Source: Podarcis pityusensis
Lineage: Eukaryota
Length of the DNA stretch: 64,000 bases
Direction: 5' to 3' (one strand)
Assembly (NCBI GenBank): GCA_964106645.2
Contig: OZ067039.1
Part shown: piece by piece, positions 2,702-57,169 of the stretch
Position numbering within the stretch: the first letter of the stretch is position 1
Layout: every line of letters begins with the position of its first letter
The notes under the pieces: generated by a model
What the model saw: only the letters and a program-made list of their open reading frames with translations
The model's database searches: none
What the model was told of the DNA's origin: nothing
Made by a program: the position numbers and the translations under genes

Positions 2702-3663
2702 ACATACATATACAGTGCTGCCAAAAACATTTTTCTTGATTTGCAATTCATGTAAATATTTCCCCAAGATTATACAAATTTTTATGTCACAAAGGCCACA
2801 GTCCTATACTTGCTTTCCTTTTGTAACTACCGTAGAATGATTAAAACTAATTGGGTTTAATTCTAAGTAGACATGTATAGGACTGTACTGCATTTAAAGA
2901 GAGAGGATATACAGAAAGGTCAAATTACTCTTGACTTCTGTCTTTCATTATAGAGACCCTTACACATGGAAAATTTTGGAGGATGCAAGGCAAAAACAAA
3001 AGGTGAAAAAATAAAATAAAATCCTCATTCATGCTCAGGTCTGGAAATAAATGACAAGAATTACACCACCACAGAAGATCATTCAAGTTCTCAAGTGTTT
3101 GGAACAAGGGAGGGAAGAAACAGGAACAGGCTTAAAAATAAAATAAAATCAAGGACAAAAGAGCAAACTTGTTGACAGGATCTCAAGAGAAAGGGGTGGG
3201 TTCCACAAACAGATTCAGAAACCCTACGCACTTGAGTATTTTGAATTATGCAGGAAGATCTCAGAACAAAATCTCAAGAAAAGTGCATCAGGGCGGCAAA
3301 TGAAGGGAATGAGCTGCAGCTGATCATAAGGCCACACCCAGCCTGTGCTTGTCCAATTCCACACATCCATGTAAAGTGACCTGCTAGGCTGAGAGAGGAC
3401 AGGGCCACCAGCCCAATCCTTTCCCATGCCTTTTTGTCACCAGGGGACCTCACTAGCCAATCCCCATGGCCACCTGTTGCTCTTGTGTTGCTGGGAAGGG
3501 TGCCTCACTCACTCCAATGATGCCTACGTCTGCCAGCAGGAGTGCTGCATTGCCATAGCATGCCAGCTGCTCTTGGAGATTACACTTCCTGATGCCTTCT
3601 CAACCAATCCTAGGCACGTGCATCTGCACACACTTGCAAATGCATGCTTGTGCTTCTTCAGTA

Positions 3664-4012
3664 CAGTGGTGCCTCGCAAGACGAAATTAATCCGTTCCGC
3701 GAGTGTCTTCGTCTAGCGGTTTTTTCGTCTTGCGAAGCAACCCTATTAGTGGCTTAGCGGATTAGCGCTATTAGCGGTTTAGCGGCTATTAAAGGCTTAG
3801 CGGCTTAGCTGCTAAAAGGCTATTAGCGCCTTAGCGGCTTAGAAAAAGGGGGGGGGGGAGCGAAAAAAATTCTCAAGACTCGCAAGACATTTTCGTCTTG
3901 CGAAGCAAGCCCATAGAGAAATTCGTCCTGCGAAGCGCATCGAAAAACGGAAAACCCTTTCGTCTAGCGGGTTTTCCGTCTTGCAAGGCATTCGTCTTGC
4001 GGGGCACCACTG
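3664..4012. mobile_element. Tc1/mariner (Tigger/pogo-like) MITE
   Basis: 22-bp TIRs CAGTGGTGCC(T/C)CGCAAGACGAA (21/22 match), TA flanking both ends, internal TTAGCGG tandem units. Confidence 0.9.
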
Positions 4013-4112
4013 TATTTGATACATTATGCAGACCAAGGATCAGATGGTGTTAATTTGAACCTCTCTGGGCAAAAATAGCAGTGAATGTTAGTTCTATTAT
4101 CCTTTCGTTAGC

Positions 4113-4558: not shown

Positions 4559-5720
4559 TTCGCATTGATTCTTGTACTAACCATCTATTGCTATGTCCTT
4601 TTGAAAACTCTCCATCAACACTTCAGGTATGAAGGCCACTTCATGGCCTTGTAGTTGGTCCACAACGGCGAGGAAAGCAAATAAACAAAGCGCTGCTCTG
4701 AAAACAATCAAATGATACAGCAAAAACATTCCCATTGAGGGTCACAGCTGAAAGGTGGGAAGCAAGAGACCCTGACCTGTTTGATGAGAACCTTGGAAAA
4801 CAAAGCAAAATGAAATCCAAGATAAACAATATTTTCAAAAGCCCGTTACTCTCAGAGCACTGTGGCGTGTTCAGCTTCATATCACTTCACCCCAGGGTGA
4901 CATATTTGAAGCTGGAGCTATGTTTGCGGTAAATAGATTTGCTAGGAGGCAGATTTTCTGAAATGCCTGTCAAAGAGGGGTGGAGCACAACACAGGTTAA
5001 TGTTCATTTGCCCTCTTTAGGTTAAACGAATAAGCCTTTTTTTAGAAGAAACATTTTCTCTTTCCATGTTCAGGATGTTATATAAAAGACCACCTCTTCT
5101 TTCGGAAGAAGATTCAGGTTTGCCCATGTTGTTCCACATGCTCCTTGACCTGTAATAAGACCAACTCTCAAGAACTTTATTCACAATTTCCCAGAGGTGC
5201 AGAATCATAGCGAATCTTGACATTGGGCAGGCATCATTTCTACCAGCTGCAAGAGCAGGAATCGGTGCTGTTGGGCAGCTGTGGGGAAGCTTTGGACTAC
5301 AATTCCCAGCCACCCCTGGCTATGCTTGCTGGGTCTGATGGAAGTTGTAGTCCAACAACATCTAGAGGCCCTGCTGTAAGGCTTAGTCAATGTTACGTTA
5401 TTTTGTATTAAGGGCTCCCATGAACACCTTCATACATTGAAAGCAGGAGTGAGGGGATTTCAGGTTTGTGACAATTAGCTACACTTCCCACTGTCACTGT
5501 GTGTGTTGCCCGTGCATCTGGCAGGTGTGTGAAGTGGCGCTCCCTGGCTCAGTATTGTGTAGATTCAGTGTGTGAAGATTTATTTTGACACCAAGGCAAG
5601 AGATCAAATTAAGATGTCTTCCTTTAGAGGTACCCAATGAGTCTTATTACATTGAAGCATAAGCGATGCTGGTATCTCACTCCATTTTCATGCCATCAGT
5701 GAGTTTGTCTCTTCTTGGGT

Positions 5721-5856
5721 CACTGTTTCTCAAACTTGGGTCTTCGGTTGTTGTTGGACTACAACTCCCATCATCCCTATCTAGAAGGAGCAGTGTTCAG
5801 GGGTGATTGGAGTTGTAGTCCAACAACAGCTGGAGACCCAAGTTTGGGAAACACTG
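5721..5856. mobile_element. hAT-like palindromic MITE
   Basis: Near-perfect fold-back with GGACTACAACTCC...GGAGTTGTAGTCC. Related degenerate pieces lie at ~5290-5372 and ~5880-5975. Confidence 0.8.
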
Positions 5857-6039
5857 TGAAGGGCCACAAAACCAAAGGCTGTAGGTCATGATCAGGATTT
5901 TGACAGTAAAAATGTCCATTGACCATGCTGGCTGGAGCTGATTGGAGTTGAAATCCAATCACACCTGCAAGGGCAGTTCCACATGAAGACTCGTTCTTCC
6001 TTTTAGCCCACCAGAATATCCATTCCTTATTGGCCATGT

Positions 6040-6155: not shown

Positions 6156-7211
6156 CGCTGCACCTTTTCCAGTAAGCAGGCAGGCAAGTGTCTGATGCAA
6201 TTAACAAGAAAAAGCCACATTACACTGGCAGCTCCTTTTCCTGACCTTTCAATATCATCACTATATGCATAAAATTGAGAATGTCGCCTGCAGCATGAAT
6301 CCTGTTCTGCAACACTTAAAAACTGTTACGGCAGTGACCTGCATGTCGATGGGCTGTTTCCTCACCCCCAGTTGTTGTTGTTTTATTTAAAGTTGGGCAT
6401 TTGGATGAGGAGAGGGGAAGACAGAATCACTTAGGGTCAACCTTTGCATCGGTAAGGCAATGCCACCAGCATTCTCCCTTCCATAAAAACCATGCGACAC
6501 GTTCCAATTTTCAAATAGTAAGAAGAGGGAAAGACATTTGGTTGAATGCTATGCGGTATCTGTTGCTTAGGCAACCACCTCCTTGGAAACTACACGGCAT
6601 TCTCAGCATGCCTGTATATCAATTCATCTCATGTTCTGAAAGAGAAAAACCTGTGGTTTAGCAGGAACAAACATGCAAACACGATGAGTCATAACAATGA
6701 GCAAAGGAAAGGAAGAAGTGGCATGTTTATCACCTGCGGCTGAAATCTGGCCCAAAGTTACACTGTTTTACATACACTTGGCACCTGATGTCCGGTTTAG
6801 GTATCTTCACCATCTGATGTCGGGTCAGAAACTTCCAGCTCCAGGCAGCAGTGGATAGTGTGGTGGGGCAGAGATGCCTAAGTGACCTCCCAGCAGGTGG
6901 GGTGTCGCTAGTGGTGCGGTGCAAACGCACTGGTAGAAGCACCAGGTTGGTTCTACTGGTGTGTTTGTACCATGCCAGCCTCACTGATGCTTCAGTGGGG
7001 CAGTGACTCACCTGCTGGGAGGTCAGGTAAACTCTTGTGTCCCATCACACTGTTTGCTACTGGCTCCAGGGCCTTTTCAGTGGTGTCATCCTCACTGTGA
7101 AGCACCTTGTAAAATAAGGCCTGCCTCCCTGCCTCCCTTCTGATATTAGGATCTATGTAAAAACAACAACCAAAAATACCTTTAAAAGAGCAACACACAA
7201 ATGCATTGGGA

Positions 7212-7388: not shown

Positions 7389-7989
7389 CATTAGGACGTT
7401 GAGGTGATACATATGAACTGGTTTAGAGTGGTTGGTTGCTGGGGCTCATCTGTTGGTAGATTGATTTTAAAACAGCATCATTTTAAATTTCTTAACAGGA
7501 TTATCGAAATCCAGGGGAAGTGAGATGTATTTGAGTCCCGTTGATTTCAGTGGTAATCCTTTGGAAAAATTGAGTGTTCTTAAAGAAAAAAATATGTTAT
7601 TTTTCTGATAACACCTTTTTGTCCGTCTCTCCATGCTTTTATGCTCTTTGTATGGAACCCGGACTGCACCCACTGGCCATGACTCCATCTACATCCCTAT
7701 AATTAGCGGGATGCCTGGAAAAGGGCACCTTCCATGTGCACAGCTGTATGCATGTAGGTGTTCAACCTGATGTTTATGCTCCCAGTTGTGTTGGTGCTCC
7801 TTTTCAGTTGGCCCACTGAATGTGCGGTTGTCAGGGGCATGGACAGTGGTGTCATCGCCCTGGGACTGGACCCTGCCATTTTCTTCAGGGTATGAAATTC
7901 AGAGCTCTAAAAGGGGGAATTACATAAAGGCTCAGCTCCAGAAAGCAGGTTGTATAAGATGAACCTGTGGTACCAGTGTCCCTCTAGTC

Positions 7990-8125
7990 CAGCCTCTCAA
8001 CCCGTGGGTCCCCAGATGTTGTTGAACTACAACTCCTATCACCCCTAGCTAGCAAGGCCAGAGCTCAGGGATGATGGGAGTTGTAGTCCAACAACATCTG
8101 GGGACCCATAGGTTGAGAACTGCTG
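7990..8125. mobile_element. hAT-like palindromic MITE
   Basis: Long inverted repeat of the same family as 5721 and 55304; imperfect 8-bp TSD ctctagtc/gtttagtc. Confidence 0.8.
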
Positions 8126-8930
8126 GTTTAGTCCAAGGATGTTACATTGCAGTCCTCTGACTCAGAGGACAGAAGACCCAAGATATTCAGAGTCTCCCCC
8201 ACTTTATCAGAGTGAGATTGCTGGTGTGTGCTGGGCCATTTTAACTGAAGAGGCACTTTTCAGTAAGGGCAGAACTTAACAATTGAGATAGAACTACTGC
8301 TGCTATGGAAGGCTCAGTCCAAAGCTCACTGTTGCTAAAGCAACATCAGACTTACCTCACCTTGAGCAGGGTGTGGTGATGCTCTCTTCCCTGTTCCCTT
8401 CCTGGGTGTAGACTAAATGAATGGAACACCTGAAGAGAAATTACTCAAGCAGTCACCTACCAATCTGACTCTGCAGAAAAAGCTGCAACAAATTTCCCCA
8501 TCCTGAATTTGTGATGAACTCACAATTAAGAGAGCAGGACTCATTGCCCACAGCAGATAATGCTATGAAGCCATTTCAGGAACAAGAACAACAAGAAAAA
8601 ACCCAAGATTTCATGGCGAGCAGATCAGTGAATTAATATAACAAAACAACATTATGGCAGTGAAAGGCACCTATTGGTTCCACCCAGGCAAAAACTGGAA
8701 ATTGATTTTCATCCTTGCCTCAGGATATATTTCTTCTTGCCAGCCAAGAAAGCATTGAGGTCAAAATGGAAACACATTTGCCAATAATTTAAAGAGAAAA
8801 TAGTGTAAAGTAATTCCCTTGCAGGAGATATTGCAGCTTCATTTGTAGAAAGTTTCAAATGAAGGAAATGGAAAACTCAACTTAGAAGGTTACAAGGCTA
8901 TTCGATGCCAGTGAGTTTTGGGAACTAGTA

Positions 8931-12550: not shown

Positions 12551-14023
12551 ATATATATATATATAAAACCGAGAGAAGAAATCCAGTACTGAAACATCCA
12601 TTGACGAATCATTCAGGGACAAGTTAAGGCTCAGCCAATTGATATTTTCCCCCAGTAACACTATAATTTAACATGGAATTTTATCCTGTCTTCTAATAAC
12701 AATATTCAGCAGCTTCATGTGCAGCTGGTTTTGAGCACCTCAACACTTGGAGCTACTTTAAAGTTTCTAAAGTTCAGATAAATGGATCTTCTAAGTAGGA
12801 GTCTAAAAACACCTGGACTTTTTTCTTCTGCTCAGGCAAATGGACAGTGACAGTGGAATCGGCAATTGCGGCGCAGGGCGAGGGGACTTTGGTAGTGATA
12901 ATAATCAATTTGGTGGCATGACTGTGGAGAGCTGCAATGGCCTTTGAGAGGAATCGGAATACTTTTTTCTGAGTTGCTAAACAAACAAACGAATCCATTA
13001 CTTTGAAATAATATCATATTGCTCAGCATTAGAGAAGCAAGGCATCTTCGTTTTACTGTCTGTTTTTATCATCCGTTGTGCCACTGTTAAAAAGCAATAG
13101 TTTTATAAGCTGTAGGAGCCAATCTGCTGTTGTCTGTCTGTATATTGCTGAAAACTTTACATAGTCTGACAGAGAAAATTGCCCTTTGCATTCACTGTTG
13201 GCAGAGGAAACAAGCTGAAAGTATGTCCAGTTCTTATAAAACACTGACAACCTCACAATGCACCAAGCAATAAAAAGAATAGATTTTCTATCCTATGCTT
13301 AAAGTGGTAGAATAAAAGGGAGCTGGAAGAAAAGGGGAAACTTTTCTAAGGGCCATGTACGCATCAGAGTTAAACTGGGTCACTCTGCAATGCAACGTAG
13401 ATTTTTACCGCATATAAATTTAGCAGCTTTCTTTGGCATTAGGTGTGTGCCAGCAGCATTTTTCTGTTATCTCAAGTTCAGAGCAGGTCCATTGAGGTAC
13501 TATGAAATTTGAGCCAGGTATCATAAATTGTAGTAGTTAGAATAGAAACTGTTGTCAATTATAAAAGACATGTTGGTTGATGTTGCACCTAGAGTAAGAC
13601 TGGGGAAATGTTAACTGAATCTGAAATTGGATAGATGCAAGTAGTTTTCCTGCTTGTTTTTCAAATGCATGACTGAGCACTCTCTCCTTAGCTGCATGTT
13701 AAAAAATAAAACAAAAAAATGCTTGCGAAGGCAAGGGATTCAAGCATCTTTTTCTGGAAGACTAATGAACATTAAGTTCTCTTTCAGGAGCTTCACAGAT
13801 ATGTATTTCCACTGGAAAATCAGGGATTTGTGCGCAGTTAGGAACAAACTTTCACAAGAGATGTGTCGCTGCCTCTGAAAACAGGAGCCTCAGTCACATT
13901 CCTGCCTTCTCTCTTCCCTGCTAACAATACCTCACCATACTGTGTGCTTTGCCACCCTGCTTCACTTCCTTGGTTGCTGCTTGGGGAGAGGGGCTGTCCC
14001 ACATATGTTTTTTACTAGTTATT

Positions 14024-14358
14024 TGAAATATGCTCGGAGTCGAGAGTGGTCATGCTTTTTATTCAGCTCATAGTGGTGAGGAGGAATGGAAATTCCCCCA
14101 AAATGTCTGCTTTATATACATTATTTACACAATGGGCCCCACGTGATTGGTTAATTCCGGGATTCTCCTGTAGGCCAATCAGGTTTCAGATTCACTTCCA
14201 CCTGGAGCTGGATTGGGTGGCTCCTGTGGACCAATCAGGCTGCTGCATTCCGAATCCTATTGTTCTAGGACCAATCAGACTGCTGCATTTTGGATCCTAT
14301 TGTTCTAGGACCAATCAGACTGCTGCATTTTGGATCCTAGTCAACTCAGTACATAACA
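14024..14358 (-). mobile_element. Solo LTR with 40-bp CCAAT-containing tandem repeat
   Basis: TG...CA ends, exact 5-bp TSD ttatt, minus-strand TATATAAA followed by AATAAA; ~3 copies of ggaccaatcagactgctgcattttggatcctattgttcta. Confidence 0.85.
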
Positions 14359-14996
14359 TTATTGCAGAGGGGAGGAGGAGTTGATTTGGGGTTGCTGCTG
14401 TCAAATTCATGCCATACATTTAAAGCGCATGGCTTCCCCCCAGAGAATCCTGGGAACTGTATCTCCCATCTCACAGAGCTACAATTGCTAGCATAGGTGC
14501 CAACTCTGTGGGGCCCTGGAGCACCCACAAAATTCCCCATGAAGAAGCCAGGCACCCACAAATTTTGGTGCCAGGGCCCTGCACGCTGCATGGGTACCCA
14601 TGGCCCCGGGCACCCAAGTCATGGGGCCAAGCTGGTACTCCTGATTCTGAGCATAGTTCCCAGGATTCATGTGGTGAAGTCACATGCTTTTAATGTGCAT
14701 TAGATGCGCTTTTAATATATGGTGTGGATCTGTATGCTGGCGGCTGCCTGTCTTACCTAGCATCTGATGAGCGCTCCAGGAATTGCACTTGGAGAGATCC
14801 CAATTTGATAATTAAATTCAGAGTGCTTACCTCAACTGTAAGTCATCAGCCGGTGACTAAATACACAAATGCATATTTTGACACGATACTACAGCTATGT
14901 TGCAGCCTCTGCTTTTAAGTGTGTGCTCCTTTTCATATTGTTTCGTCATTCCCCTTCAGACCCCATTTGATACCAAAACAGGAATGTGGTGAATGT

Positions 14997-15210
14997 GCCA
15001 GTGTGGTGTACTGGTTTAGGTGTTGGACTAGGACCTGCAAGACCAGGGTTCAAATCAGGCATGGAGCGCACTGTGTCTTGGGTCAGTTCCCTTCTCTCTC
15101 TCTTAGCCTAGCCTACCACACAAGCCTGTGGTGGTGATAAAGTGAGAGCGACAACCATGGATATCATCTTGAGTTCCTTGGAAGAGAGGTGGGATATAAA
15201 TGCTAAAATA
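14997..15210 (+). mobile_element. CORE/Squam3-like SINE
   Basis: GCCAGTGTGGTGTA.TGG A-box, GGTTCAAATC B-box, GGGATATAAAT + (TAA)n tail. Confidence 0.65.
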
Positions 15211-15614
15211 ATATTAATATTAATATTAATAATAATAATTTTAAACCCAAATGAATATCAACTCACCAAAAAACTGGAAAAAATACAGCAATCCTGTTCC
15301 AAAGCAGATCTTAACATGAATTTCCATGTGCAAGCTCACTGCTGAATTTTCTTTCTCAGAGGCAACGTTCAGGTTGGTTTCTATGCTATTTAAAACTCCA
15401 CAATTTTCCTCTTTGACTGAAACTGTGTTTCTTCAGAGCTTCCCATTCAGAAAGCGTGTTCTCCCTAACCAGAGAGCACGTGTTGCGGTTGGGGAAACAT
15501 GCCACCCTGCCATGACTAGGCAGATTTGAGAGAAAACCCAAGCCTTCTAAAGGGTTAAGATTGGGTTGCTGGGGATTTTTGTATGTTGCTAAATTCAGAG
15601 GAGGGGTTAGAGTC

Positions 15615-15620
15615 TATAAA
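15615..15620 (+). promoter_or_regulatory. TATA box of the retrotransposon promoter
   Basis: TATAAATATAAGGGG about 55 bp inside the inferred left end, followed by a nearly ATG-free leader. Confidence 0.6.
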
Positions 15621-16160
15621 TATAAGGGGCCAGAGGTTGGACTTCCTCTTGGCCGTTTTGCTTCGGATCAGGAGAGACGGTTGTATTTCTGAGCTTATTT
15701 GACTTCTACTTTCGAATTCCTTGGGCCTAGGTTTAAAAATCTTCCCTTTTTCCCTCGTGCTGCTCCGTATTTGATTTTCCTTCCCAAATCCCCTTCCCCT
15801 CCCCACCCCCCCATCCCGTGTGTATTAATTAATCCCTCATTTTAGTTATATATTTAGAGGAAGTTTTTAACGCCTAGGCTAGAGGGTGGGTACCCCCCCC
15901 CGGCCTTGGGGCCTGCCCCTGTTAGGGCCCGGCAGCCTGATTCCCGGGCGGCGGCCGCTGGCTGTTGGCCGGGCTCCAGCCACTTGTTAAGGTGGGAGGC
16001 CTGCAGCGAGCCGCCCAGGCCTCGCGGAAATTTTCTTGAATTTTAACAATAATAATAATAATATATAGAAATAAATAGAATCCTCCTCTTACCTTTCGCG
16101 GTTTTCCTGGTGCCGTGGGGGGAAGGTGCCTTGGTTTGGCCCCTAACCAGGGCCGCGGCA

Positions 16161-16420
16161 GCGCCCGCCATTTAAGGGGCACCCTTCACGGACCTCGTGG
16201 GTGCAGGGCTGCTTCGGGGAGGAATTGCCTTCCCCCGGTTTCGGCCGCTCGCTGCGAGAGCGGCTGAATTGTTAAAGGGTAGCGGCGGCTGCAGTGCGGC
16301 CAAGTTAGCGGCGGCCGGGCCGGGGCCAGGGCTCCTTGCGTGCCCGGCCTCTCCGTTAGGTTTGCGGGGCCGCCTCCCCTGGGGCTTGGGGCTGCGGCTC
16401 GTTGTTGCGCCCGCCATTTT
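16161..16420 (+). promoter_or_regulatory. Two YY1-like motifs
   Basis: GCGCCCGCCATTT occurs at 16161-16173 and 16407-16419; CGCCATTTT is the YY1 consensus. Confidence 0.55.
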
Positions 16421-16486
16421 CTGCTTCTTCGTGGCGCATCTCCGGGGGAGGAGGATTTCTCCACGGTGGTTGATTTTTTCCCTGCT

Positions 16487-16628
16487 CGCCCTCCGGTGGC
16501 CGTGCAGGGTTATTGCAGCTGAGCAGTGTGCCGGCGCTCCCCCTGGTGGCTCGGCTTGCTAGTGCACCTTCTCCAGTGTGAGTTTCGGGCTGGCTGGTGC
16601 CCCCTGCTGGCCGGGCTCAGGAAGTGCA
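16487..16628 (-). promoter_or_regulatory. Three co-oriented CTCF motifs with upstream module
   Basis: Cores CGCCCTCCGGTGGC (16487), CTCCCCCTGGTGGC (16537) and TGCCCCCTGCTGGC (16598), each followed 13-14 nt later by TGCA. Confidence 0.7.
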
Positions 16629-16972
16629 TTTATTTTATTTTAATTTTTAAGTTTATTTGATTTTATATGCTTAAAATAAAATAAAAAAATAAAAATAAAT
16701 AAATAAATAAATAAATAAGAAGAAGAAGAACAAGTACATAAAACAAATATAAACAAATAAGTAAAAGTAATAAAAAATAAAATAAAATAAATAAATAATC
16801 GAAATATATATATATATATAAAAAAATCATTCTGTTTTTTGCATTTATTTAGTTTTAATTTATCTGACAGCGATTGGTGTAATTCCTTCACTTCTGTAAA
16901 TTATTTAGTTGCGTTCAGCAGCGCCGCCTGGCTGCGGCAATCGTTAATTCTCATTTTGATCCAATAGCAGGT

Positions 16973-18497
16973 ATGCCTCCTAAGAAAGCCGCTGCTCGTC
17001 CCGCCTCGGCCTCTGGTGCTAAACGGCCTATTAGAGGTCCATCGCAGGCGCTTCGCTCTCCTACCCCAAGGCAACCGGTGGGACGGGTGCAATCCTTGGT
17101 AGAAAGTATGGCCGGCAATCCAGCAGCATTGTCTCGCTTCGCAGCCGAAATGGATGGTTTCCTGCAACACTGCTCTGCACAGCCTTCCACGTCTGGGAGG
17201 CGTCCTTGCCCAGTAGTGGCATCATCTCCAGCGTCGCCGTCCTCTAGTGAAGAAGGGAGAGATGGCTCATTATCTAGGGGTTTGATAGCCGATTCCCAGC
17301 TTGCTCGGTCCCGTGTCTTACCTGCTGCTCGCGGCCGTTCGCGGAGGCCGCGCCGTTCCGCTGGGAGGGCCGCGGGAAGGCAAAACCCCTTGGCCCCTTC
17401 CACCCGCCGAGCTGTGCGCACCCAACCTTCGGATGAGGTGGCATCGGGTTCAGGCCTATCACTGGTTGTTTCTCCTCAGTCTGCTCCAGGTACATCACAG
17501 CTGAGCCCTGATTCTGAGTCTTCCATTGAGGACAGCTTGCCGGTTCCCGCCAGGAAGTCTTCGGGCGGAAAACGTCGCCGCAGAAGGTCTTCCCGGAAAC
17601 ATGCCAAGCGAAGGAGGGGTGAATCATCTTCCTCGTATTCTGGTACGTCATCCTCCAGTTCTGATGATGAGTCTGGCAATTCCAGGGAACTTTATTGGGG
17701 TTTTGGAGAATCGGCCTCGGGATTGCCTCGGTGGGCTTGGGATCGGAGGGCCAACACGCACCGCGCAAGGTATGGGGCGGTCCAGGAGTGCAGGGATGGC
17801 GTGTTGGTGCCTGACGTTAAAGTCTCTACCAATTCTGCTAGGGACATTATCCCTGGTTTGCATTTGTCAACAAAACTGCGGTCCAGGATTCTGAACGGCC
17901 GTTATGTGGACATCTTCAAATTGGCCCCTCCTTCGGAGGACCAGGAGGCAGGGAAGTCGCCCAAAAAACGCCAGGGCACTCCCTCAGTAGACAGGACTTT
18001 CGAGCATTGGCTCGATTGTTTCCAGGTCTTTGCTGGTGTGGTGGTGGCAGCTTACCCTCGGAGATCTCTTCATTTGATAGTGTACTTGTCTATTGTTCGC
18101 TCTGCTTTCACCAAAGCTGGTGAGAAAGCTGCGATAAAATATGATGAGAACTTCAGGCGCCGCGCCGCTAGGATCCCCTCAGCACGATGGGATCGTAAGG
18201 ATCTCGACGTGTGGACCACCCATGTAGCTCCACATCGATAAGAAAGCGCCGGAGCAACAGAAGTCGAGGACTGGGGCGTTTAGGACTAGCCGTCGTTTCC
18301 CATGCTGGGATTATAATAAGGGTTCTTGTCAGCGGCAGGGGTGTAGGTATGCCCACATTTGTGAGAAATGCAATGGTTCGCATCCTGCCTCCTCTTGTTT
18401 TGGCAATCGGCGGCCCTTTCGTGGCGGAAAAGGGGGTTCTCAGCAAACCCCCAAGCAAAACACCCCTCTCGCTCCTGCCCCAGGCACAGGAAAATGA
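16973..18497 (+). CDS. Gag-like ORF1 of the YR retrotransposon, frameshifted at ~18230
   Basis: 422-aa ORF (Ser/Arg-rich N-terminus; I..GRYVD, W..CF..F, YDE.FR motifs) stops at 18241. The CCCH+CCHC zinc fingers (CWDYNKGSCQRQGCRYAHICEKCNGSHPASSC) continue in another frame, 18231-18497. Confidence 0.85.
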
Positions 18498-18510
18498 GCT
18501 TTTGTCAGCC

Positions 18511-20103
18511 ATGGCTCATACCCCTGTTCGGTTGCCGGCCCTGCAGCTTTGGTTGCAGTCTTATCCTAACAGGGATGCTGCAGGTTATTTGAGGGATGGT
18601 TTTTCTGTTGGTTTCCGGATTCCGGTAGCCATGCCTCCCGTGGCACGGAATCCGTCTAACCAAAAATCGATTCGTGAGCTACCTGACGTCGCTCGCAGAA
18701 AGATTGCAAAGGAGCTGGCCATGCATCGGATGGCCGGTCCTTTTGATGCCCCTCCCTTTCATAATTTGCATGTATCCCCATTGGGTATTGTCCCAAAGAA
18801 GGCTCCGGGTGAATTTCGTTTAATTCATAATTTGTCACATCCTAGGGGTACTTCAGTCAATGATGTTATCCCCCCGGAGCTTTGCTCCGTGAAGTATGCA
18901 TCTCTTGATCAGGCGATCAAGATGATTAGGAAGTTCGGCCACGCTGCCCTATTGGCAAAATGCGACATTGAGTCGGCATTCCGCCTTCTCCCAATTCACC
19001 CGGATGATTTTTGGCTACTGGGTTTTCAGTTTGAGGGCAAGTATTACTTTGACAAAGCCATGCCTATGGGTTGTTCAATAGCCTGCGCTGCCTTTGAATC
19101 ATTTAGCACCTTTCTCGAGTGGGCCCTTAAATTTAAAACAGGATTGGGCGGGGTCACGCATTATTTGGATGATTTTTTATTGGCCTCGGCTCACGATACT
19201 GGTGAGTGCTCGGTGTTGCTACAGGCCTTTGCTGACCTTACGCAGGAGCTGGGGGTTCCGCTTGCTTCGGAAAAGACCGAGGGTCCATCTACTCAGCTTA
19301 CGTATTTGGGTATCCTGTTGGATACGGTTGCCCAGACTTCTAGTTTGCCAATGGACAAGCTAGTAGCCTTGAAGAAGGTCATAGAGGAACTGCTCCCTTT
19401 GAAGAAAGCATCTCTTCTACAAATTCAGTCATTGTTGGGGCATCTGAATTTCGCGTGCAGGGTGGTGGCGCCTGGGCGCCCTTTCTGTTCGCGCCTGGCT
19501 CGCCTCACTGTGGGATTGAGGGCCCCTCATCATAGGGTGCGCCTATCTAAGGAGGTGAGGGCCGATCTTTCCATATGGCTGGAATTCCTGGAGGAATTCA
19601 ATGGGGTGTCGTTATGGCAAGACACTTTAAACTTGCAAAATGATTTTCAGGTACAATCGGATGCTGCAGGTTCCCTGGGTTTTGGTCTTTACTGGAAGGG
19701 GCGGTGGTGCGCAGAGCGTTGGCCGCCTGAGTGGCAGGGAGGAGAAATTACACGGGACCTAACATTTCTCGAGTTTTTTCCCATTGCAGTGGCTGTGCAT
19801 TTGTGGGTCGAGGAATTCAGGAACCGTCGTGTCTGCTTCTGGACCGATAATCAGGCGGTGGTGAACGTGCTGGCGAAACTGTCATCACGCTCTCCCAGGG
19901 TGTCGGCCTTATTGCGGGCCTTCGTGTTGCATTGTTTACGTCATAATATAGTGTTCTCTGCACGTTTTATTCCTGGGGTGTCTAACGAAATTGCTGATGC
20001 TCTGTCCCGTTTTCAGATGGAGCGGTTCAGACTTCTGGTTCCAGAGGCGCGGATACGTCCGGAGTATTTCCCGGATCATCTCTGGAACCTTGGCAGCAAT
20101 TAG
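18511..20103 (+). CDS. Reverse transcriptase / RNase H (DIRS/Ngaro pol)
   Basis: Motifs SPLGIVPKK, FRLIHNLS, KCDIESAFR, MPMG, YLDDF, YLGI; RNase H SDA...LE...TDN...ADALSR. ATG in GCCATGG context (the frame is open from before 18211). Confidence 0.95.
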   Translation: MAHTPVRLPALQLWLQSYPNRDAAGYLRDGFSVGFRIPVAMPPVARNPSNQKSIRELPDVARRKIAKELAMHRMAGPFDAPPFHNLHVSPLGIVPKKAPGEFRLIHNLSHPRGTSVNDVIPPELCSVKYASLDQAIKMIRKFGHAALLAKCDIESAFRLLPIHPDDFWLLGFQFEGKYYFDKAMPMGCSIACAAFESFSTFLEWALKFKTGLGGVTHYLDDFLLASAHDTGECSVLLQAFADLTQELGVPLASEKTEGPSTQLTYLGILLDTVAQTSSLPMDKLVALKKVIEELLPLKKASLLQIQSLLGHLNFACRVVAPGRPFCSRLARLTVGLRAPHHRVRLSKEVRADLSIWLEFLEEFNGVSLWQDTLNLQNDFQVQSDAAGSLGFGLYWKGRWCAERWPPEWQGGEITRDLTFLEFFPIAVAVHLWVEEFRNRRVCFWTDNQAVVNVLAKLSSRSPRVSALLRAFVLHCLRHNIVFSARFIPGVSNEIADALSRFQMERFRLLVPEARIRPEYFPDHLWNLGSN

Positions 20104-20987
20104 TTTTGCAGGGAGTAGCGGCTTCGGTTTCACCTTCTACCCTTAGATCTTACACAAAGGCTTGGACCGATTTTTTGACATTTACGCGCCAGACAACCTC
20201 TAATTTAGAGGGTGTTCCCCCCACCTCCTCGCAGGTGTTGAGCTATTTAGCACATTTATTTCAGTTAGGGCGGGCAGCAAGAACTATTAAGATACAGGCG
20301 GCTGCCATAGCCTTTTTCTGTAAGACATTTTATGATAAGGACCCTTGTGCGAGGTTTATAGTGCGCAGGGCCCTCGAAGGCTGGAGCAGACTTCGTCCGT
20401 CCCAGCCGGCCTCACGGTGCCCCATTTCCTTTGATTTGTTGAGTAGGATGCGCAAGAGGCTGCGGGTGGTATGCTGGTCGGGGTACGAGGCTCGCCTTTT
20501 CTCGGCTGCCTTTTCTATTGCCTTTTTTGGAGCCCTGAGAGTGGGTGAGCTGGTATTTGAAGATATCAGAGATGGTCGTTCCAGGGGCCTTTTGCTCAGG
20601 GACGTGCAGCTAACCCCCGCAGAATTGAAAATCACAGTCAGAAATTCTAAGACTGATCAGAAGGGTAGGGGTGCCGTCATTCGTCTCCCTGCTACGGGAG
20701 AGGCAGGCCCTTGCCCTGTGAAGGATGTCAGTAAATACTTAGCAGTACGCGTCACGGGTGATGGGCCTCTGCTTAGACATGAAAATGGGTCGCCCCTAAC
20801 GAGACGCCAGTTTGCACAGGTGATGCGTAAAGCGATTCTCGCTTGTGACGGCACGTCGGATGGTTTCGCCCCTCACTCCTTTAGGATTGGGGCCGCAACA
20901 ACGGCTGCTCATTGGGGTTTGTCGGCCGCTAGGATAAAGGATTTGGGGCGCTGGAAGTCGAATGCCTTTCGGGGCTATGTTCGTTAG
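19998..20987 (+). CDS. Tyrosine recombinase (lambda-integrase family); no initiating ATG
   Basis: Catalytic set intact: GALRVGEL (R), SKTDQ (K), HSFRIG (HxxR), GRWKS (W), GYVR (Y). The frame is open from 19998 and overlaps the end of RNase H. Confidence 0.93.
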   Translation, partial: CSVPFSDGAVQTSGSRGADTSGVFPGSSLEPWQQLVLQGVAASVSPSTLRSYTKAWTDFLTFTRQTTSNLEGVPPTSSQVLSYLAHLFQLGRAARTIKIQAAAIAFFCKTFYDKDPCARFIVRRALEGWSRLRPSQPASRCPISFDLLSRMRKRLRVVCWSGYEARLFSAAFSIAFFGALRVGELVFEDIRDGRSRGLLLRDVQLTPAELKITVRNSKTDQKGRGAVIRLPATGEAGPCPVKDVSKYLAVRVTGDGPLLRHENGSPLTRRQFAQVMRKAILACDGTSDGFAPHSFRIGAATTAAHWGLSAARIKDLGRWKSNAFRGYVR

Positions 20988-21603
20988 TACTTTCGGACTC
21001 TTATACTGTTTGTTTTTGTTTATCTCAGGTCTGGCGGCTGTTCGCATCTGGTTGGTGGGGCACAGCATCATCCATTGGGCTGCTGTCGCAGCACGGCAGT
21101 CCAGGCTGGGTCCAGGTCTCGGCTTCCCTCCACATGTGCAGCTGTCATGGCTGTCCAGACGGGGTATGCGCTGGTCAGAGTTCCTGCCGAGGATTCGGAG
21201 GCAGTTGCTCTTGGAAGGGCAGCCCACGGCTATTGTGGTGCAGCTGGGTGAGAACGACCTGGTATCCGTGGACTGTTTATCACTTCGTGCTGCAATTTTG
21301 AGTGACTTGGAGATGCTGCGAACATTGGTGCCGTCAGCTAAAATATTTTGGTCTAAGCTATTGCAACGCCGCATTTGGATGGGCAGTCGTTGCCCGGCAG
21401 CCACAGAAAGGGCCAGAAAACGCATCAATTCTGCGGTGGCTAAGAAGATTTCTGAGTTGGGTGGTGATGTGATTTCCCATCCGGTGATTCGTTTTCAAGC
21501 TGCGCCCCTTTTTAGGGCTGATGGTGTGCACCTCTCTGCCTCAGGGAATGAGGTTTGGCTGGGTGCAGTGGTGGCCAAGCTGAGGGCTTGGTTGGGGCTG
21601 TGA
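20962..21603 (+). CDS. SGNH/GDSL hydrolase (esterase-like) ORF
   Basis: Block I WLVGHS, block II RRGM, block III QLGEND, block V DGVHL. The domain probably begins at the acceptor at 21029. Confidence 0.88.
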   Translation: MPFGAMFVSTFGLLYCLFLFISGLAAVRIWLVGHSIIHWAAVAARQSRLGPGLGFPPHVQLSWLSRRGMRWSEFLPRIRRQLLLEGQPTAIVVQLGENDLVSVDCLSLRAAILSDLEMLRTLVPSAKIFWSKLLQRRIWMGSRCPAATERARKRINSAVAKKISELGGDVISHPVIRFQAAPLFRADGVHLSASGNEVWLGAVVAKLRAWLGL

Positions 21604-21940
21604 GTGGTTTGGCGGTGAGCTGGAGGCTCCATGGCGGTTAGGCATTGGTTAAAGTGGTGCTTGGAGGGGTAAGTGCCTACCCCTCCAAATGATGCGAAGG
21701 GAATTCCGTTAAAGGAATCCAGGGGCTTGCCATTCATTTCGTCCTTGTCCCTGGCATCGGACTTGGGCCGTGCAAGCCCCAAAGGAACATGAGGGTGAGA
21801 AGTGAGGGACTGATGCCCAGCTTCATTTTCTCACCCAATACTTGTTTCCCACTCTGGCTTCCGCTGGTGTCCGGAATGCCAGCTCTGTCCCTGAGGGCAT
21901 GGACAGATAGTCATAACCAATGCCTAAGCAACCACTCACA
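21599..21940 (+). other. Predicted multibranch structured RNA in the retrotransposon 3' region
   Basis: Perfect long-range stems of 11 bp (21599-21609/21930-21940) and 14 bp (21638-21651/21914-21927) enclose at least five hairpins. Confidence 0.7.
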
Positions 21941-21951
21941 TTTTTTGTATG

Positions 21952-21957
21952 AATAAA
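21952..21957 (+). terminator. Polyadenylation signal of the element
   Basis: AATAAA directly after the structured region, with a GT/T-rich tract at ~22000. Confidence 0.6.
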
Positions 21958-22554
21958 GTTGTGGCCAAAATTATGCCAAAAAACCTAAACAAAAATTGAT
22001 GTGTGAAGTGTGATTTATTTGGGGGGTGGCAATTGTGGGACTCAACACGCAATTGCTTCAGAGTCAAGTAGAAGCTCTTTATCTCATGATCTCTTGTTTG
22101 CAATTCAGCAGGATGCTGGCTTAATTACAGAATGTGATGGTGGCTGAGTTTACAGCCCACCAGATGGTTATGTCAGTTGTTAAAAGCGCAAGATCCCCAC
22201 CCATCCACTGGAATGTTGTTACAGCTCTCCTACGCTGGATTGGCATTAGTTAAGATGGCTGCTTTGTTTAGCAGTGAATGAAGTTAAGGAAAGATGGTGA
22301 GGTTTGCTGCACTTTTGTAGATGCCAAATGTGCAACAATATGGAGGATGCCATAGGTTGTGTGGTTTCAGCTCCCTTAGGAAAGCTGGAATTTAGATGAA
22401 GCTGCTTGGAAAAATTTGCAACACAGTGGCAAGGTGCATAATAAAGGTTAAAGGCATAGCCTGTATTGCCAGTACAATTTGCAAAAGGTGGCTTCTTGTA
22501 AAGGACAAGGCAATTTAGACCTGGTGCTGGACTTGCCGCACTAGACAGCCTATT

Positions 22555-22685
22555 CCCTTTTAAAATGTGTTGTTTTTATTTTGATTATGTATTTTGTGGT
22601 TTTATATTCTGATTTTATTCTGGGAACCACCTTGAGACCTGTGGGTGTAGGGCGGTATATAAATTCAATAAATTAATAAAATAAT
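22555..22685 (+). mobile_element. LINE (L2-like) 3' tail fragment
   Basis: T-rich tract followed by CCACCTTGAG...GGGCGGTATATAAAT and an (AATAA)n tail. Confidence 0.5.
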
Positions 22686-24257
22686 AGAAAAGTGAAAATT
22701 AAATCGTGTGTACAAGTGGAAGCATGAAATCTGAAAACATAGCACTGTAGGAAGTCCTGCATGACCATTTGTGGGAAGACCATTTGCCTTCCATTCATGG
22801 TATTATTTTGTTAACTCCCTGCTTTTTCTTCATTGTGTTTCTCTTCTCCTACTTCCTAGATTTAATGCTGGCTTTTTCTTTGTTATCATGAAAGTCAAAA
22901 CCTGCTCAGATATTGCATGATGGGCTATAATTTAATATGGTATTTAACCTTTTAAATGTGCTTATCCATTTGTCTTTTTTTTTGTCTACCGCTAAGTCAT
23001 TTCACAGTTGAGTTGCAGTAGTCAGCAAATGAACCCATTCACAATATCCACATGGATATCACTGAAATAAAACCAGCTATGAATATCAACCAGCTACTTC
23101 TTCTTCTGCCTTCATAAAACCTTCTATATTGGGATGATGCACAGGGATGCAAGATTTAGGCTGGGTTCTCTGCACGGCGTTGTGACTCTTGTCTATTTCT
23201 CGACTACTCCCCATGCTTGTCGAGACAATAAGCTCTTCTGTGCAATGCCTTCTTTCATTGTAAGTCCTCTCATATTTGCATAGATGGCATTATGTCAACA
23301 TTATACACAAAAGTGTATATAAAAACTCACCTCTGGGATCCCCACTCTTGTATGCTAACAGTGTTAGCATACAAATCCTACATATTTCTGTTCAGAAGTA
23401 AATCTTGCTGAGTGAAATAGGACTTAACTTTCAAGTGGGTATAGCTTTGCAGCCTGAAAAACTAAAACCAAAGCAGGGCTGTGCATTAGTAGGTGGCTTA
23501 GTGACCAGGGACTCTCACTGAATTCTGTGCAGCAAAACAAATAGGCTACAAATGGCAACAATATTGGGAGATAAATTGGGTTCATTGGGTACAGATTTAG
23601 CTCACATTCCAATAAAATTATTGGGAACACATCCTTTAATTTTTTTAATCCTTTAATTTTGCTTCCAGGGCATTTTGAGATGTATTTTCAACAAACATGG
23701 AAGATACTGCGCCAAACAGCTAGAAACTATTTTTTAAAAAGAAAAGAAAATTAATGGAGCCCTTGGATCACCTTGCAAAACTGTAGGTAGTTGACCAGTG
23801 TTCTGGAGGTACATGCATTAGACTTATTGCAGAAGTCTAATGCATGTACCTCCATCCTCATCCATGCACTGGTGTGGACGGTGCAAACCAGGGATACTGG
23901 CTCCAAATTGTGGCACAGACATAATTCTTTCTCACTGTTCATGGGCCCTTTTTTGCACTGAGATGGAGAAATGAACTTGTTTGGAAAAAATATGGGTTTG
24001 TTCCCACTGATAATAGTATAAGGTCAGTGGCAGAGAAATAGAGAGACAGATTAAGAGTGAATCAAATAATGAAATCCAAGCTTCAATTGTGCTCCAATTT
24101 AAGCTGTAAAAAAATCACCAATTGGAGACTATCCTCAAGGTTGTATATAGAGGAAATCCAGCAAGAGAAATATATGTAACTTGGCCTTTTACATATAGTC
24201 ATATTGCTACCACAGGGGAGATTACCTTTATTGTAAACCATCTTGGAAGTAAATTAA

Positions 24258-24422
24258 GAAATTGTCCAGTAGCATCTTAGAGACCAATTAAGTTTGTTCT
24301 GGGTATAAGCTTTCATGCGCATGCACACTTCTTCAGATACAAAGTTGATCTGAAGAAGTGTGCATGTACATGAAAGCTTATACCCAGAAGAAACTTGGTC
24401 TCTAATTTTTGGGACAATTTTT
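24258..24422. mobile_element. Penelope-like element terminal sequence as an inverted pair, each arm with a hammerhead-like motif
   Basis: Arms ~24258-24338 and ~24348-24422; each carries CTGAAGA-AGTGTGCATGxxCAT-GAAAGCTTATAC. Confidence 0.7.
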
Positions 24423-24499
24423 AATTTTTATTTATTTATTTCAACCGCGTCAGACCTACCTGCACCTTGGAAATATTTTATATTGAAAGGAGAGGTATG

Positions 24500-54200: not shown

Positions 54201-55303
54201 GAACAAAATTCAGTGAATGAATCATTCATTTCTCAAGGATTAACTGGGTCATTATATTTAATCCTTCTCTAAACTGGTGGACATGTGTTCCGCTTGACTG
54301 TAACATTTTCACTGGATTTGTGTCACATTATGTTTACTTGCTTCTTAAAAGACTGAAAAACTAATGTGCTGTGAAAAACCAACTCTATTGCATTTTAAGA
54401 TCCATTACCTGATTTTTCTGTACACAAATATATATACTGTTTTAATGTACTTGCTGAGAACAGTAAGGAAGCACCACCACCAGGGACAAGTGCATAACTC
54501 CTAGTGCATGTGTGATCCAATTGTATGAAGGAGATAAATACAACAGTTCTAGCTTAAAATTAGACACAGCCCAATAATTGGTGATGGTGTCATGATTAGA
54601 CCTCTGATTCTTCCAATATCCTAATTTCTTGAAATATGTGGAGTCCCAAATTTTAATATATCCTTGAGAAAGCATCTGCAAAGGGTATTTAACAAGTCTT
54701 ATTTCTGAAACATTCACATCTCAGGGCAGCACCTACAGTCACGAGAAATTGACACTAAATTTATTTAGGAATGTTTTGTCATAGGACAGGCCCTCTGTGA
54801 GAGAAGGAGACCCTCATATGCTCTCTAGTGTTAATCTGGATTAGATATGGGTATGTCTTTATTAGGCTCTGCTCTTTTGCAATATCATTGTACCTATAAG
54901 TCCCCCATCTAGTAAATGTGGCCCACACCGCATAGAAAATATTATCTCTGAGAAATAATGAAAAAGCATACACTTGTAAACCAAAAATGATCAAAATTTG
55001 CAAAATTAATTCACTATACAGAATAACAGATTTTAATGCAAAAACTAAAAATTTAGAAACATATTGTTTCTGTTCAAGCGCTTAAAAAATCATTAGTATG
55101 GAAAGGTGGGGTTGGAACCCCATAATTTTTGTGATGTAGACCCTCTCCCCCAACAGCTACAGTTCTTAGCAAGGTGGAATGGGATCATGGCTTAGATACA
55201 ATTGGCGAGAGTCATGTGGTGGGATTTCTGGATTTCTTTAAGGGCACCCCTAACCATTTCTCCATAATCCAGCCCCCCCAATTTAATAAATAATAAATTA
55301 GAC

Positions 55304-55439
55304 CAGGCATAGGCAAACTCGGCCCTCCAGATATTTTGGGACTACAACTCCCACCGTCCCTGATCACTGGTCCTGTTAGCTAGGGATAATAGGAGTTGTA
55401 GTCCCAAAACATCTGGAGGGCCGAGTTTGCCTGTGCCTG
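55304..55439. mobile_element. hAT-like palindromic MITE
   Basis: CAGGCATAGGCAAACTCGGCCCTCCAGAT TIR; 8-bp TSD aattagac/gattagac. Confidence 0.9.
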
Positions 55440-57169
55440 GATTAGACAAATTAATGGAGGCTATCAGTGGCTACTAGTCTTCATAGCCATATGCTGCTTC
55501 CAGGATCAGATGCACCCAGCCTCTGAACACAGTTGCTGGGGATGGGGAATAACAGCAAGAGACTACTATTCCCACATGCCCTTGCTGTGAGCTGCCCATA
55601 AGCATCTGGTTAGCCACTGTCAGAAAGGGGTTGGGCTAGATTCGCCTTTAATCTGATCCAGCAGAGCTCTTCATGTATTCTTATGATTCAAAAAAGTACA
55701 CATACTTCTGTACTTCCTGGGATTATCTGGTGTTTTGGAACAGAAAGATTTGATATTTATATATTACTCATTTTTCTGAAAGGCTTACCACTGACACCTG
55801 AACATTCCCACAAATATACCACAAAAGCTAAATGCCATCACTCAAGTGAAAAATTCACACAAAATTTCAAATGCAGACACCAGTTGTTTGTGGAATGTTA
55901 CAGAATAGATTGTAGACATACTGAAACCTGCAGCCTGCCATTGCATCTCTCTTTCACTAAAAAGCGAAGAGAATGCAATTTATTGCAAATTCTATGTGTC
56001 GTTTATAAAAGTGCCCCAAATTTTCTTGTTTGCTTCAGTTGTAATTGGTTATTAAAACTGTAGGTTGGGCTGACCAAGCTATTCTTCCTGGGCTTATAAT
56101 TTGTTCACTATGTTTCACACCTGGACATAATAATTCATTCTTCTGTGCTGTACTGACTACTATCCCAGGTAACCTATGCTATTTCACAAATCCAAAGAAA
56201 ACAAGCATAATCTCCATGACCCAGATCAAGCTACTACAATAAGATAATTTTAACAATGTCTGCAGTACCTGCAGCACTTCTCGAAACACCATTTGAAATT
56301 CCCTTTTCATCGTTCTAATAACACCATTACTTGCTGTAGCAGAGCAACGAAGCTATGTAGTCCCTGATCCAAATCTCTACCCAAGGATGTTTTCCATCCC
56401 TGCTCAATATCAGATGCTATGGCATACTATGTGAATGCAGAAATGGTCCATCAAAGGTGCTTATTTTGCCATACAAAATATCATCAAGTGCTGTTGTACA
56501 GTACTCAGTTCAACTTGGACACACTACTTATAGTCTCTGCAGGCCATTTAACAATTTTGACTTTTGCTCTGAAGGAAATTGAAATCCAAAATAAGAGGTC
56601 AAATCAAAACAACAAACAAACAAACAACAAACCCAATTTGGCAAAAATAAATAAATAAAAGAGGGTTGGGGGAAGAGAAGTGGCATTATTTACAAAAGAT
56701 GATGGTTATGAACAATCTTAGCAGTGCCATTTTGGCACTGAAAAGACAACAAAAATGTATGTGCCTGCATATGCCAGAAACCCCAAAATTTTCATTCTAG
56801 CTTTCAGTAAAAAATTAAAAGATTAATGAAACATAACCAGTGAAATGAGGCACAACAATACCTTCTAAGTCAAGCTTTTCATACAAGCACACTAATATGT
56901 AACATCTAACCCCTATCCCCACTTGCTTGGCAGGCTAACGTGGTAGTGAATTAGAACCATGAATAGAAGAAGTGAATAACATCTGGCAGCTCCAATAATG
57001 CTGGCAGTGAAATTGCATTAGTGCTCTACTTTGCTCAATTATTCCACAGTTATATCACAAATATAAGTTGCAAGGAATAAAGCATAATTCCCAAACATAA
57101 TGCCCACAATGTAAAGTTACCAATTTCCTTTGTTATACAACGTGCCTATGGGGAATTTCCACTCTGTTC

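Follow-up and report, generated by a model that had tools for sequence, protein, structure and literature searches.

Within the window, a stretch of 64,000 nt from the lizard Podarcis pityusensis, a multibranch RNA structure of about 340 nt had been claimed between the last stop codon of a retroelement and its poly(A) signal. The locus raises the question whether such a fold is real, to which kind of element it belongs and what it could do there. The element consists of the following genes and signals:

15615-15625, plus strand: TATA-like box, followed by a GC-rich leader, at the presumed 5′ end of the element
16973-18497, plus strand: gag-like gene, interrupted near 18238, with an internal phase-1 donor-like site at 17643
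18511-20103, plus strand: RT/RNase H open frame, starting at an ATG in strong context
20017-20987, plus strand: tyrosine recombinase (YR) frame, preceded by a phase-1 acceptor-like site whose last intron base is 20016
21029-21603, plus strand: coding exon of the SGNH/GDSL hydrolase, preceded by a phase-1 acceptor-like site whose last intron base is 21028

The Pfam search of the element reported RVT_1 (E 1.3e-12) as well as Phage_integrase (E 0.001) and Lipase_GDSL_2 (E 2.4e-6), the latter two below the curated cut-off. No methyltransferase family was reported, and the 530-aa pol model ends with RNase H. Because the gag-like gene has no Pfam match, its identity is taken from its position and its zinc-finger-like end. 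After the interruption at 18238 this zinc-finger-like C-terminal part runs on in another frame and stops at 18497, leaving 13 nt to the pol ATG. The GC-rich leader covers 15850-16620 and is followed by a long A/T-rich tract up to 16860; near 16534-16551 and 16597-16613 the leader contains two motifs which we take to be CTCF-like. The structural model of the RT (pLDDT 95.9) has an RT plus RNase H fold and aligns with the RTs of MMLV, Ty3 and HIV from residues 3-4 onwards (MMLV: Z 20.0, rmsd 6.6, 378 aligned). HBV polymerase models matched it by Foldseek at rank 17 (TM 0.51, rmsd 5.7), not ahead of caulimoviral RTs.

The order gag, RT/RH, YR, SGNH with overlapping frames, and with no methyltransferase seen, is also found in Xenopus DIRS-53_XT and DIRS-54_XT, but the passages of PMC9210276 on these elements describe neither a 3′ RNA domain nor splicing. 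Split direct repeats of the type A1...B1A2B2 were detected neither by self-BLAST of 14000-23500 nor by repeat finders, and there was no terminal redundancy. Many Xenopus copies and the DIRS-54_XT consensus likewise have no split direct repeats (passages of PMC9210276). Since these repeats are absent here, we call the copy Ngaro-like rather than a proven member. The hits to its RT included no named Ngaro reference. Judged by gene content and order, the folded region is the 3′ UTR of a Ngaro-like tyrosine-recombinase retrotransposon copy with gag, RT/RNase H, YR and SGNH. The best SGNH relatives are Podarcis proteins with 74-87% identity. An identical 10-mer (a T-run, then GTATG) occurs at 15577-15586 and 21942-21951, near both presumed ends of the element, and is possibly a remnant repeat or chance.

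The minimum-energy fold of 21599-21940 (342 bases) is a nested multibranch structure in the 3′ UTR with three closing stems and seven hairpins. Its parts, and those of the 3′ end behind it, are:

21599-21609/21930-21940, plus strand: outer stem P1, 11 bp, p 0.95; its 5′ arm holds the SGNH stop codon at 21601-21603
21612-21635, plus strand: small hairpin between P1 and P2, from the minimum-energy fold
21638-21651/21914-21927, plus strand: stem P2, 14 bp, p 0.98
21653-21657/21849-21853, plus strand: stem P3, which closes the inner junction, p 0.94
21661-21671/21678-21688, plus strand: arm a, 11 bp; loop 21672-21677 AGUGCC, a UGCC-type face
21700-21720, plus strand: arm b, a short hairpin; loop GUUAAA, without a strong partner
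21722-21780, plus strand: arm c, stem 21722-21730/21772-21780; loop 21751-21758 CUGGCAUC, a GGCA-type face
21784-21848, plus strand: arm d, stem 21793-21801/21828-21836; apical region 21808-21820 with GAUGCCC
21854-21882, plus strand: arm e, 10 bp; loop 21864-21871 CUGGUGUC
21884-21907, plus strand: arm f, 7 bp, stem 21884-21890/21901-21907; apical region 21891-21900 with GGGCAU
21941-22022, plus strand: poly(A) region with a U-run, UGUA at 21946, AATAAA at 21952-21957 and a GU-rich tract at about 21998-22022, all of which we take to be poly(A) motifs
22029-22058, plus strand: separate 10-bp hairpin with near-palindromic arms near the presumed 3′ end of the element, a candidate recombinase site

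Comparison of the folding energy with dinucleotide shuffles had been named beforehand as a check that could refute the structure. The predicted region reaches -161.7 kcal/mol (z -6.6), none of 100 shuffles being as good, and tighter ends of the domain gave z -9.6, -8.2 and -7.4 in the shuffle tests. The claimed structure ahead of the poly(A) signal is thereby upheld. Its main helices keep probabilities of 0.97-1.0 across contexts of 470-1100 nt; the longest has 14 bp, and many are short and nested. Six of the seven stems originally named are found at their proposed positions in the minimum-energy fold, with helix probabilities of 0.85-0.98. The seventh, 21863-21870/21876-21883, is only a minor alternative with a pair probability of 0.03, being outcompeted for the shared 3′ strand by the 10-bp arm 21854-21863/21872-21882 (p 0.97). 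The coordinates also bear out that the structure overlaps the SGNH stop codon, a TGA spanned by the outer stem, and that it ends 11 nt 5′ of AATAAA. On these folding statistics we regard a compact, self-folding seven-armed domain in 21599-21940 as a confirmed prediction. An Rfam search of 21599-21960 with E up to 5 yielded no match in the domain and two weak matches outside it, a tRNA gene scan was empty, and inspection of the fold by eye showed no U-rich internal loop that could form a triple helix with poly(A). The original prediction was also right that a hammerhead core is absent: CUGANGA does not occur, and there is no plus-strand GAAA in 21560-22080. With core motifs missing and no Rfam match in the domain, a hammerhead or other Rfam ribozyme was rejected.

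The loops of the domain are complementary to one another. UGCC is carried by loops a (AGUGCC) and d (GAUGCCC), GGCA by loops c and f (GGGCAU), and perfect Watson-Crick matches of 6 bp exist between c and d and between d and f. The GAUGCCC of arm d is complementary to loops c and f and, with G-U pairs, to e, the GGGCAU of arm f is complementary to d and a, and loop e is identical to loop c at six of eight bases. Loops a, c, d and f can be fully matched in two ways (c-d plus a-f, or d-f plus a-c), so that their pairs could be intramolecular, act as a switch or join two molecules. The loop test was devised after the motif had been seen, and loops d and f were widened for it by melting two to three weak closing pairs. 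Under these terms, there are two 6-bp matches where 3000 loop shuffles predict 0.04-0.06 (p about 0.001), and the best two disjoint loop pairs reach -16.8 kcal/mol (p 0.015-0.023, likewise post hoc); with strict loop limits, p ranges from 0.007 to 0.23 depending on the statistic. Twenty-two further folded segments of the window, each with at least five loops, contained no 6-bp match, and their best two-pair energy was -10.6. We consider it likely that the predicted tertiary kissing pairs brace the seven-armed fold. Mutually complementary loops in the 3′ UTR domain of a Ngaro-like element are a new feature. A 3′ RNA domain, kissing loops and such splicing as is described below are unreported for Ngaro-like elements in the literature searched, whose scope did not extend to the main reviews, which may mention them; PMC3783388, searched by term, treats neither hairpins nor splicing nor direct repeats.

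Of 92 candidates in a scan over prokaryotic genomes, three loci were retained (L001, L002 and L003). Two of them, L001 and L002, are distantly related YR-SGNH elements with an SGNH identity of 31-33%; they are likely animal-type retrotransposon contigs in bacterial symbiont assemblies, that is, host contamination. L003 (E 3e-4) lies mid-contig in a bacterium. After the SGNH stop, L001 and L002 have modest hairpin arrays with best z of -3.0 and -3.9 in stop-anchored windows and of -1.75 and -1.09 in longer spans; overall, their best folds behind the stop are weak, with z from -2.4 to -3.9. Their 3′ regions have neither homology to the lizard UTR nor an Rfam match. The comparison shows that the architecture is not shared at 31-33% SGNH identity, and it neither supports nor refutes the domain. 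Plasmid and phage BLAST searches gave only two short chance matches each, and a protein-level search with two spurious frames across the UTR found no relatives. Several observations on the two contigs may be added. The L002 contig (1-6616) starts and ends with the same sequence, as a circularly permuted YR-SGNH unit, only about 770 nt separate its SGNH stop from gag, and five copies of a short hairpin-forming repeat lie at 1620-2111 in its long YR-SGNH spacer. In L001 that spacer holds a 19-nt tandem array (3207-3434), and a strong hairpin cluster (4588-4947, z -7.0), which belongs to the element or its flank, lies 600 nt past the SGNH stop.

Folding and loops have no strand preference. The minus strand reaches z -6.55 as RNA, comparable to the plus strand, and does better still as DNA, at z -7.67; G-U pairs make up 7 of 121 pairs on the plus strand and 4 of 109 on the minus strand, and loop complementarity is equal on both. 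For this reason a function as RNA is inferred from position. The claim of a cis-acting RNA domain accordingly stands as far as folding statistics, position and loop complementarity go, while for action as RNA rather than as single-stranded cDNA it is the position that speaks.

Splice-like sites, identified by simple consensus counting, suggest how the downstream genes may be expressed. The donor-like site at 17643 in gag and the acceptor-like sites at 20016 (YR) and 21028 (SGNH) are all in phase 1; gag has eight donor-like sites, six of them in this phase. A predicted Podarcis gene model, P0001, exits gag exactly at the equivalent of donor 17643 and enters SGNH, and two further predicted models (P0009 and P0017) are gag-SGNH fusions as well. 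The YR acceptor is located at the identical RNase H codon in the window element, L001 and L002, and a slippery heptamer is absent from the pol/YR overlaps of all three. Of 83 aligned RTs, 43 have Gln at the residue whose codon supplies the acceptor AG. L001 shows a phase-1 acceptor ahead of SGNH as well, but L002 failed that test. The in-phase sites in the distant relatives are:

L001, 2233 and 3455: in-phase splice-like sites
L002, 508: in-phase splice-like site

This pattern suggests that Gag-YR and Gag-SGNH fusions may be made by alternative splicing from one donor rather than by frameshifting. Frameshifting is favoured for YR in the published view (as quoted in a passage of PMC13003380). 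Given in-phase splice sites and no slippery site, the element would need export of intron-retaining RNA. No obvious Rev-like gene was found, the sole long plus-strand frames being gag, pol, YR and SGNH.

In simple retroelements, such export is brought about by a structured RNA that follows the last gene and precedes the 3′ repeat. We favour, with a probability of somewhat below 40%, the reading that the 3′ UTR domain works by analogy as a putative transport element for unspliced element RNA; that the domain is functional at all is predicted with high confidence. Among the roles offered at the outset (packaging, RT priming, export of unspliced RNA and poly(A) read-through control), export fits the anatomy best, and poly(A) control has gained little, AAUAAA lying in no stable helix. 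The element would produce an unspliced RNA serving gag, pol and as the genome, in addition to spliced Gag-YR and Gag-SGNH RNAs. UGCC loops a and d would pair with GGCA loops c and f in one of the two matchings, and the folded surface would bind a host export factor, which would carry the intron-retaining RNA out of the nucleus. The motif AAGACA, presumably the CTE loop motif, is absent from the domain.

Export is our best guess because in position, in size and in its predicted kissing loops the domain resembles the MusD transport element, which has about 400 nt, adjoins the 3′ LTR and requires a kissing interaction (passages of PMC4588558 and PMC5767303). Both are located near the 3′ terminal region and have many stem-loops and a kissing interaction, which is predicted here, and the lengths are similar (about 340 nt in the lizard). 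The MusD element nevertheless belongs to an LTR element of mice and contains a complex pseudoknot, and the likeness drawn here is one of description. The CTEs of MPMV and of SERV-K/MER11 likewise follow the last gene, ahead of the 3′ end, in elements with spliced and unspliced RNAs, as would be the case here, but the MPMV CTE has 162 bp (passages of PMC11379458) and the lizard domain has no Rfam match. Export elements can arise anew and be unrelated in sequence, as the same passages state. Hepadnaviral epsilon and retroelement hammerheads are also folded cis-acting RNAs in reverse-transcribing elements; here, however, there is neither a terminal-protein-like RT domain nor a CUGANGA/GAAA core on the plus strand. 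By our reading, the domain would resemble the MusD transport element in its mode of action, and no described family is matched. A point against export is that the distant relatives, at their 31-33% SGNH identity, share no similar 3′ architecture.

A packaging or dimerisation signal is an unlikely reading, though the foremost of the alternatives to export. UGCC and GGCA loops would pair between two RNAs, with up to four kisses, and Gag would select the dimer; template jumping, by which the ends are rebuilt, would be helped in this way. The degenerate matching, in which a and d each fit c or f and e is spare, is as expected for intermolecular pairing, and dimerisation of Ty1 RNA is initiated by kissing loops (passages of PMC5454406). 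However, no loop is strongly self-complementary (best -5.2 kcal/mol), and the domain, being present on spliced RNAs as well, could not single out the genome. Better placed for this is another fold, because it would be on unspliced RNA only:

18572-18778, plus strand: second multibranch fold at the 5′ end of pol, expected on unspliced RNA only

None of 200 synonymous-codon shuffles of 18572-18778 was as stable (z -4.5), and 18537-18887 reached z -7.2. Its hairpin 18714-18738 displays the same 8-mer as loop c, and GCAUCGGA occurs in the element only twice, at 18723 and 21754. At this fold the RT carries His72, against Gly in 57 of 83 aligned RTs. Folding inside pol is not shared by the matching segments of L001 and L002 (z -0.6 and -2.2). 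A structured 5′ pol region is also known from the post-transcriptional element of MLV/XMRV, which overlaps 5′ pol but extends over about 1400 nt and lies outside the 3′ UTR (passages of PMC4588558).

Slightly more doubtful than packaging is an origin of the minus strand, where the domain would position RT and a primer (a tRNA or a self-primer) just 5′ of the terminal B repeat; after a single jump between the A copies, from the 5′ one to the 3′ one, the product would be a unit A-ORFs-B circle. Loops c and e start with UGG, as a primer-binding site might. Together with the bases following it, loop e presumably agrees at about 12 of 14 positions with what would pair to the 3′ end of a vertebrate tRNA-Leu, a likeness to which we assign a rough chance probability of about 0.1. 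No terminal redundancy is seen in the window copy, while L002 consists of one terminally redundant unit; both suit the model, and passages of PMC7192593 treat the DIRS-order primer as unknown and suggest a 3′ hairpin. The model leaves the regeneration of B1-A2-B2 ends unexplained, however, and the RT is of retroviral type from residue 3 on, with no terminal-protein or extra RNA-binding domain. Protein priming was rejected on this plain RT and the lack of an invariant N-terminal tyrosine; of the 79 alignment rows with a residue at the candidate Tyr18, 56 have Tyr and 18 have His. Priming of the hepadnaviral epsilon type was likewise rejected (no terminal-protein domain, Tyr18 in only 56 of 79 rows), and an R2-like RNA-binding extension is unsupported by the RT model, which has no added domain. 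Just as doubtful as the minus-strand origin is a composite scheme in which the 3′ multi-kissing-loop RNA would both dimerise the genome and prime the minus strand upstream of the B repeat, and the pol fold with its GCAUCGGA face would mark unspliced RNA by long-range pairing.

It is improbable that the domain has no function and is a foldback insertion or chance structure. Such strong folding is not unique to the domain, since among the 30 lowest-energy local folds, those scored of 40 kept in the 64-kb window, six other segments reach z of -8.2 or lower:

24089-24449, 55272-55632, 7829-8186, 5508-5865, 6720-7074 and 3660-4017: long-arm foldback segments, z -8.2 to -13.5

The six segments are probably small inverted-repeat transposons or paired SINEs. 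They are foldback-like with arms of 21-45 bp, unlike the 3′ UTR domain with its short nested helices and matched loops. The outer arms of the domain have no flanking target-site duplication, and no second copy was found within the window. Furthermore, the stop codon in the 5′ arm is at a shared column: the SGNH C-terminus ends there in 16 of 18 relatives (51-87% identical), with Leu in 15 and Val in one. A recent insertion supplying the outer arm is disfavoured by this common column, which we count as weak evidence for the outer stem itself. A foldback or MITE insertion was rejected on the 11-bp arms, the missing target-site duplication and the shared stop codon.

Tuning of polyadenylation, by which some transcripts would read through B1 into A2-B2, is still less probable. 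The domain stops 11 nt before AATAAA, and the Ngaro architecture would need read-through if the signal were in B (passages of PMC9210276). Nevertheless, AAUAAA lies outside the domain with an unpaired probability of 0.2-0.87 per base that varies with context, UGUA and the GU-rich tract are free, and no B repeat can be defined in the window copy.

A role in single-stranded cDNA, as second-strand origin or folded recombinase substrate, has the slimmest chance: minus-strand DNA folds well (z -7.67), the long helices are nearly without G-U and DIRS-1 accumulates such cDNA (passages of PMC7192593), but a recombination site would be expected at the element ends, about 100 nt further on, and several short helices and two loop pairs use plus-strand G-U.

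Returning to the export reading and its setting, the splicing scheme, if right, would revise the frameshift view of YR, and gene expression of the element would then be retrovirus-like. If the composite of 3′ domain and pol fold were true, it would be the missing replication signal of tyrosine-recombinase retrotransposons, and priming and genome selection would become testable in DIRS-order elements. DIRS-order elements are widespread. A 340-nt domain with defined loop pairs would give a direct handle on them, as each loop can be disrupted and then restored in assays of export, dimerisation and cDNA.
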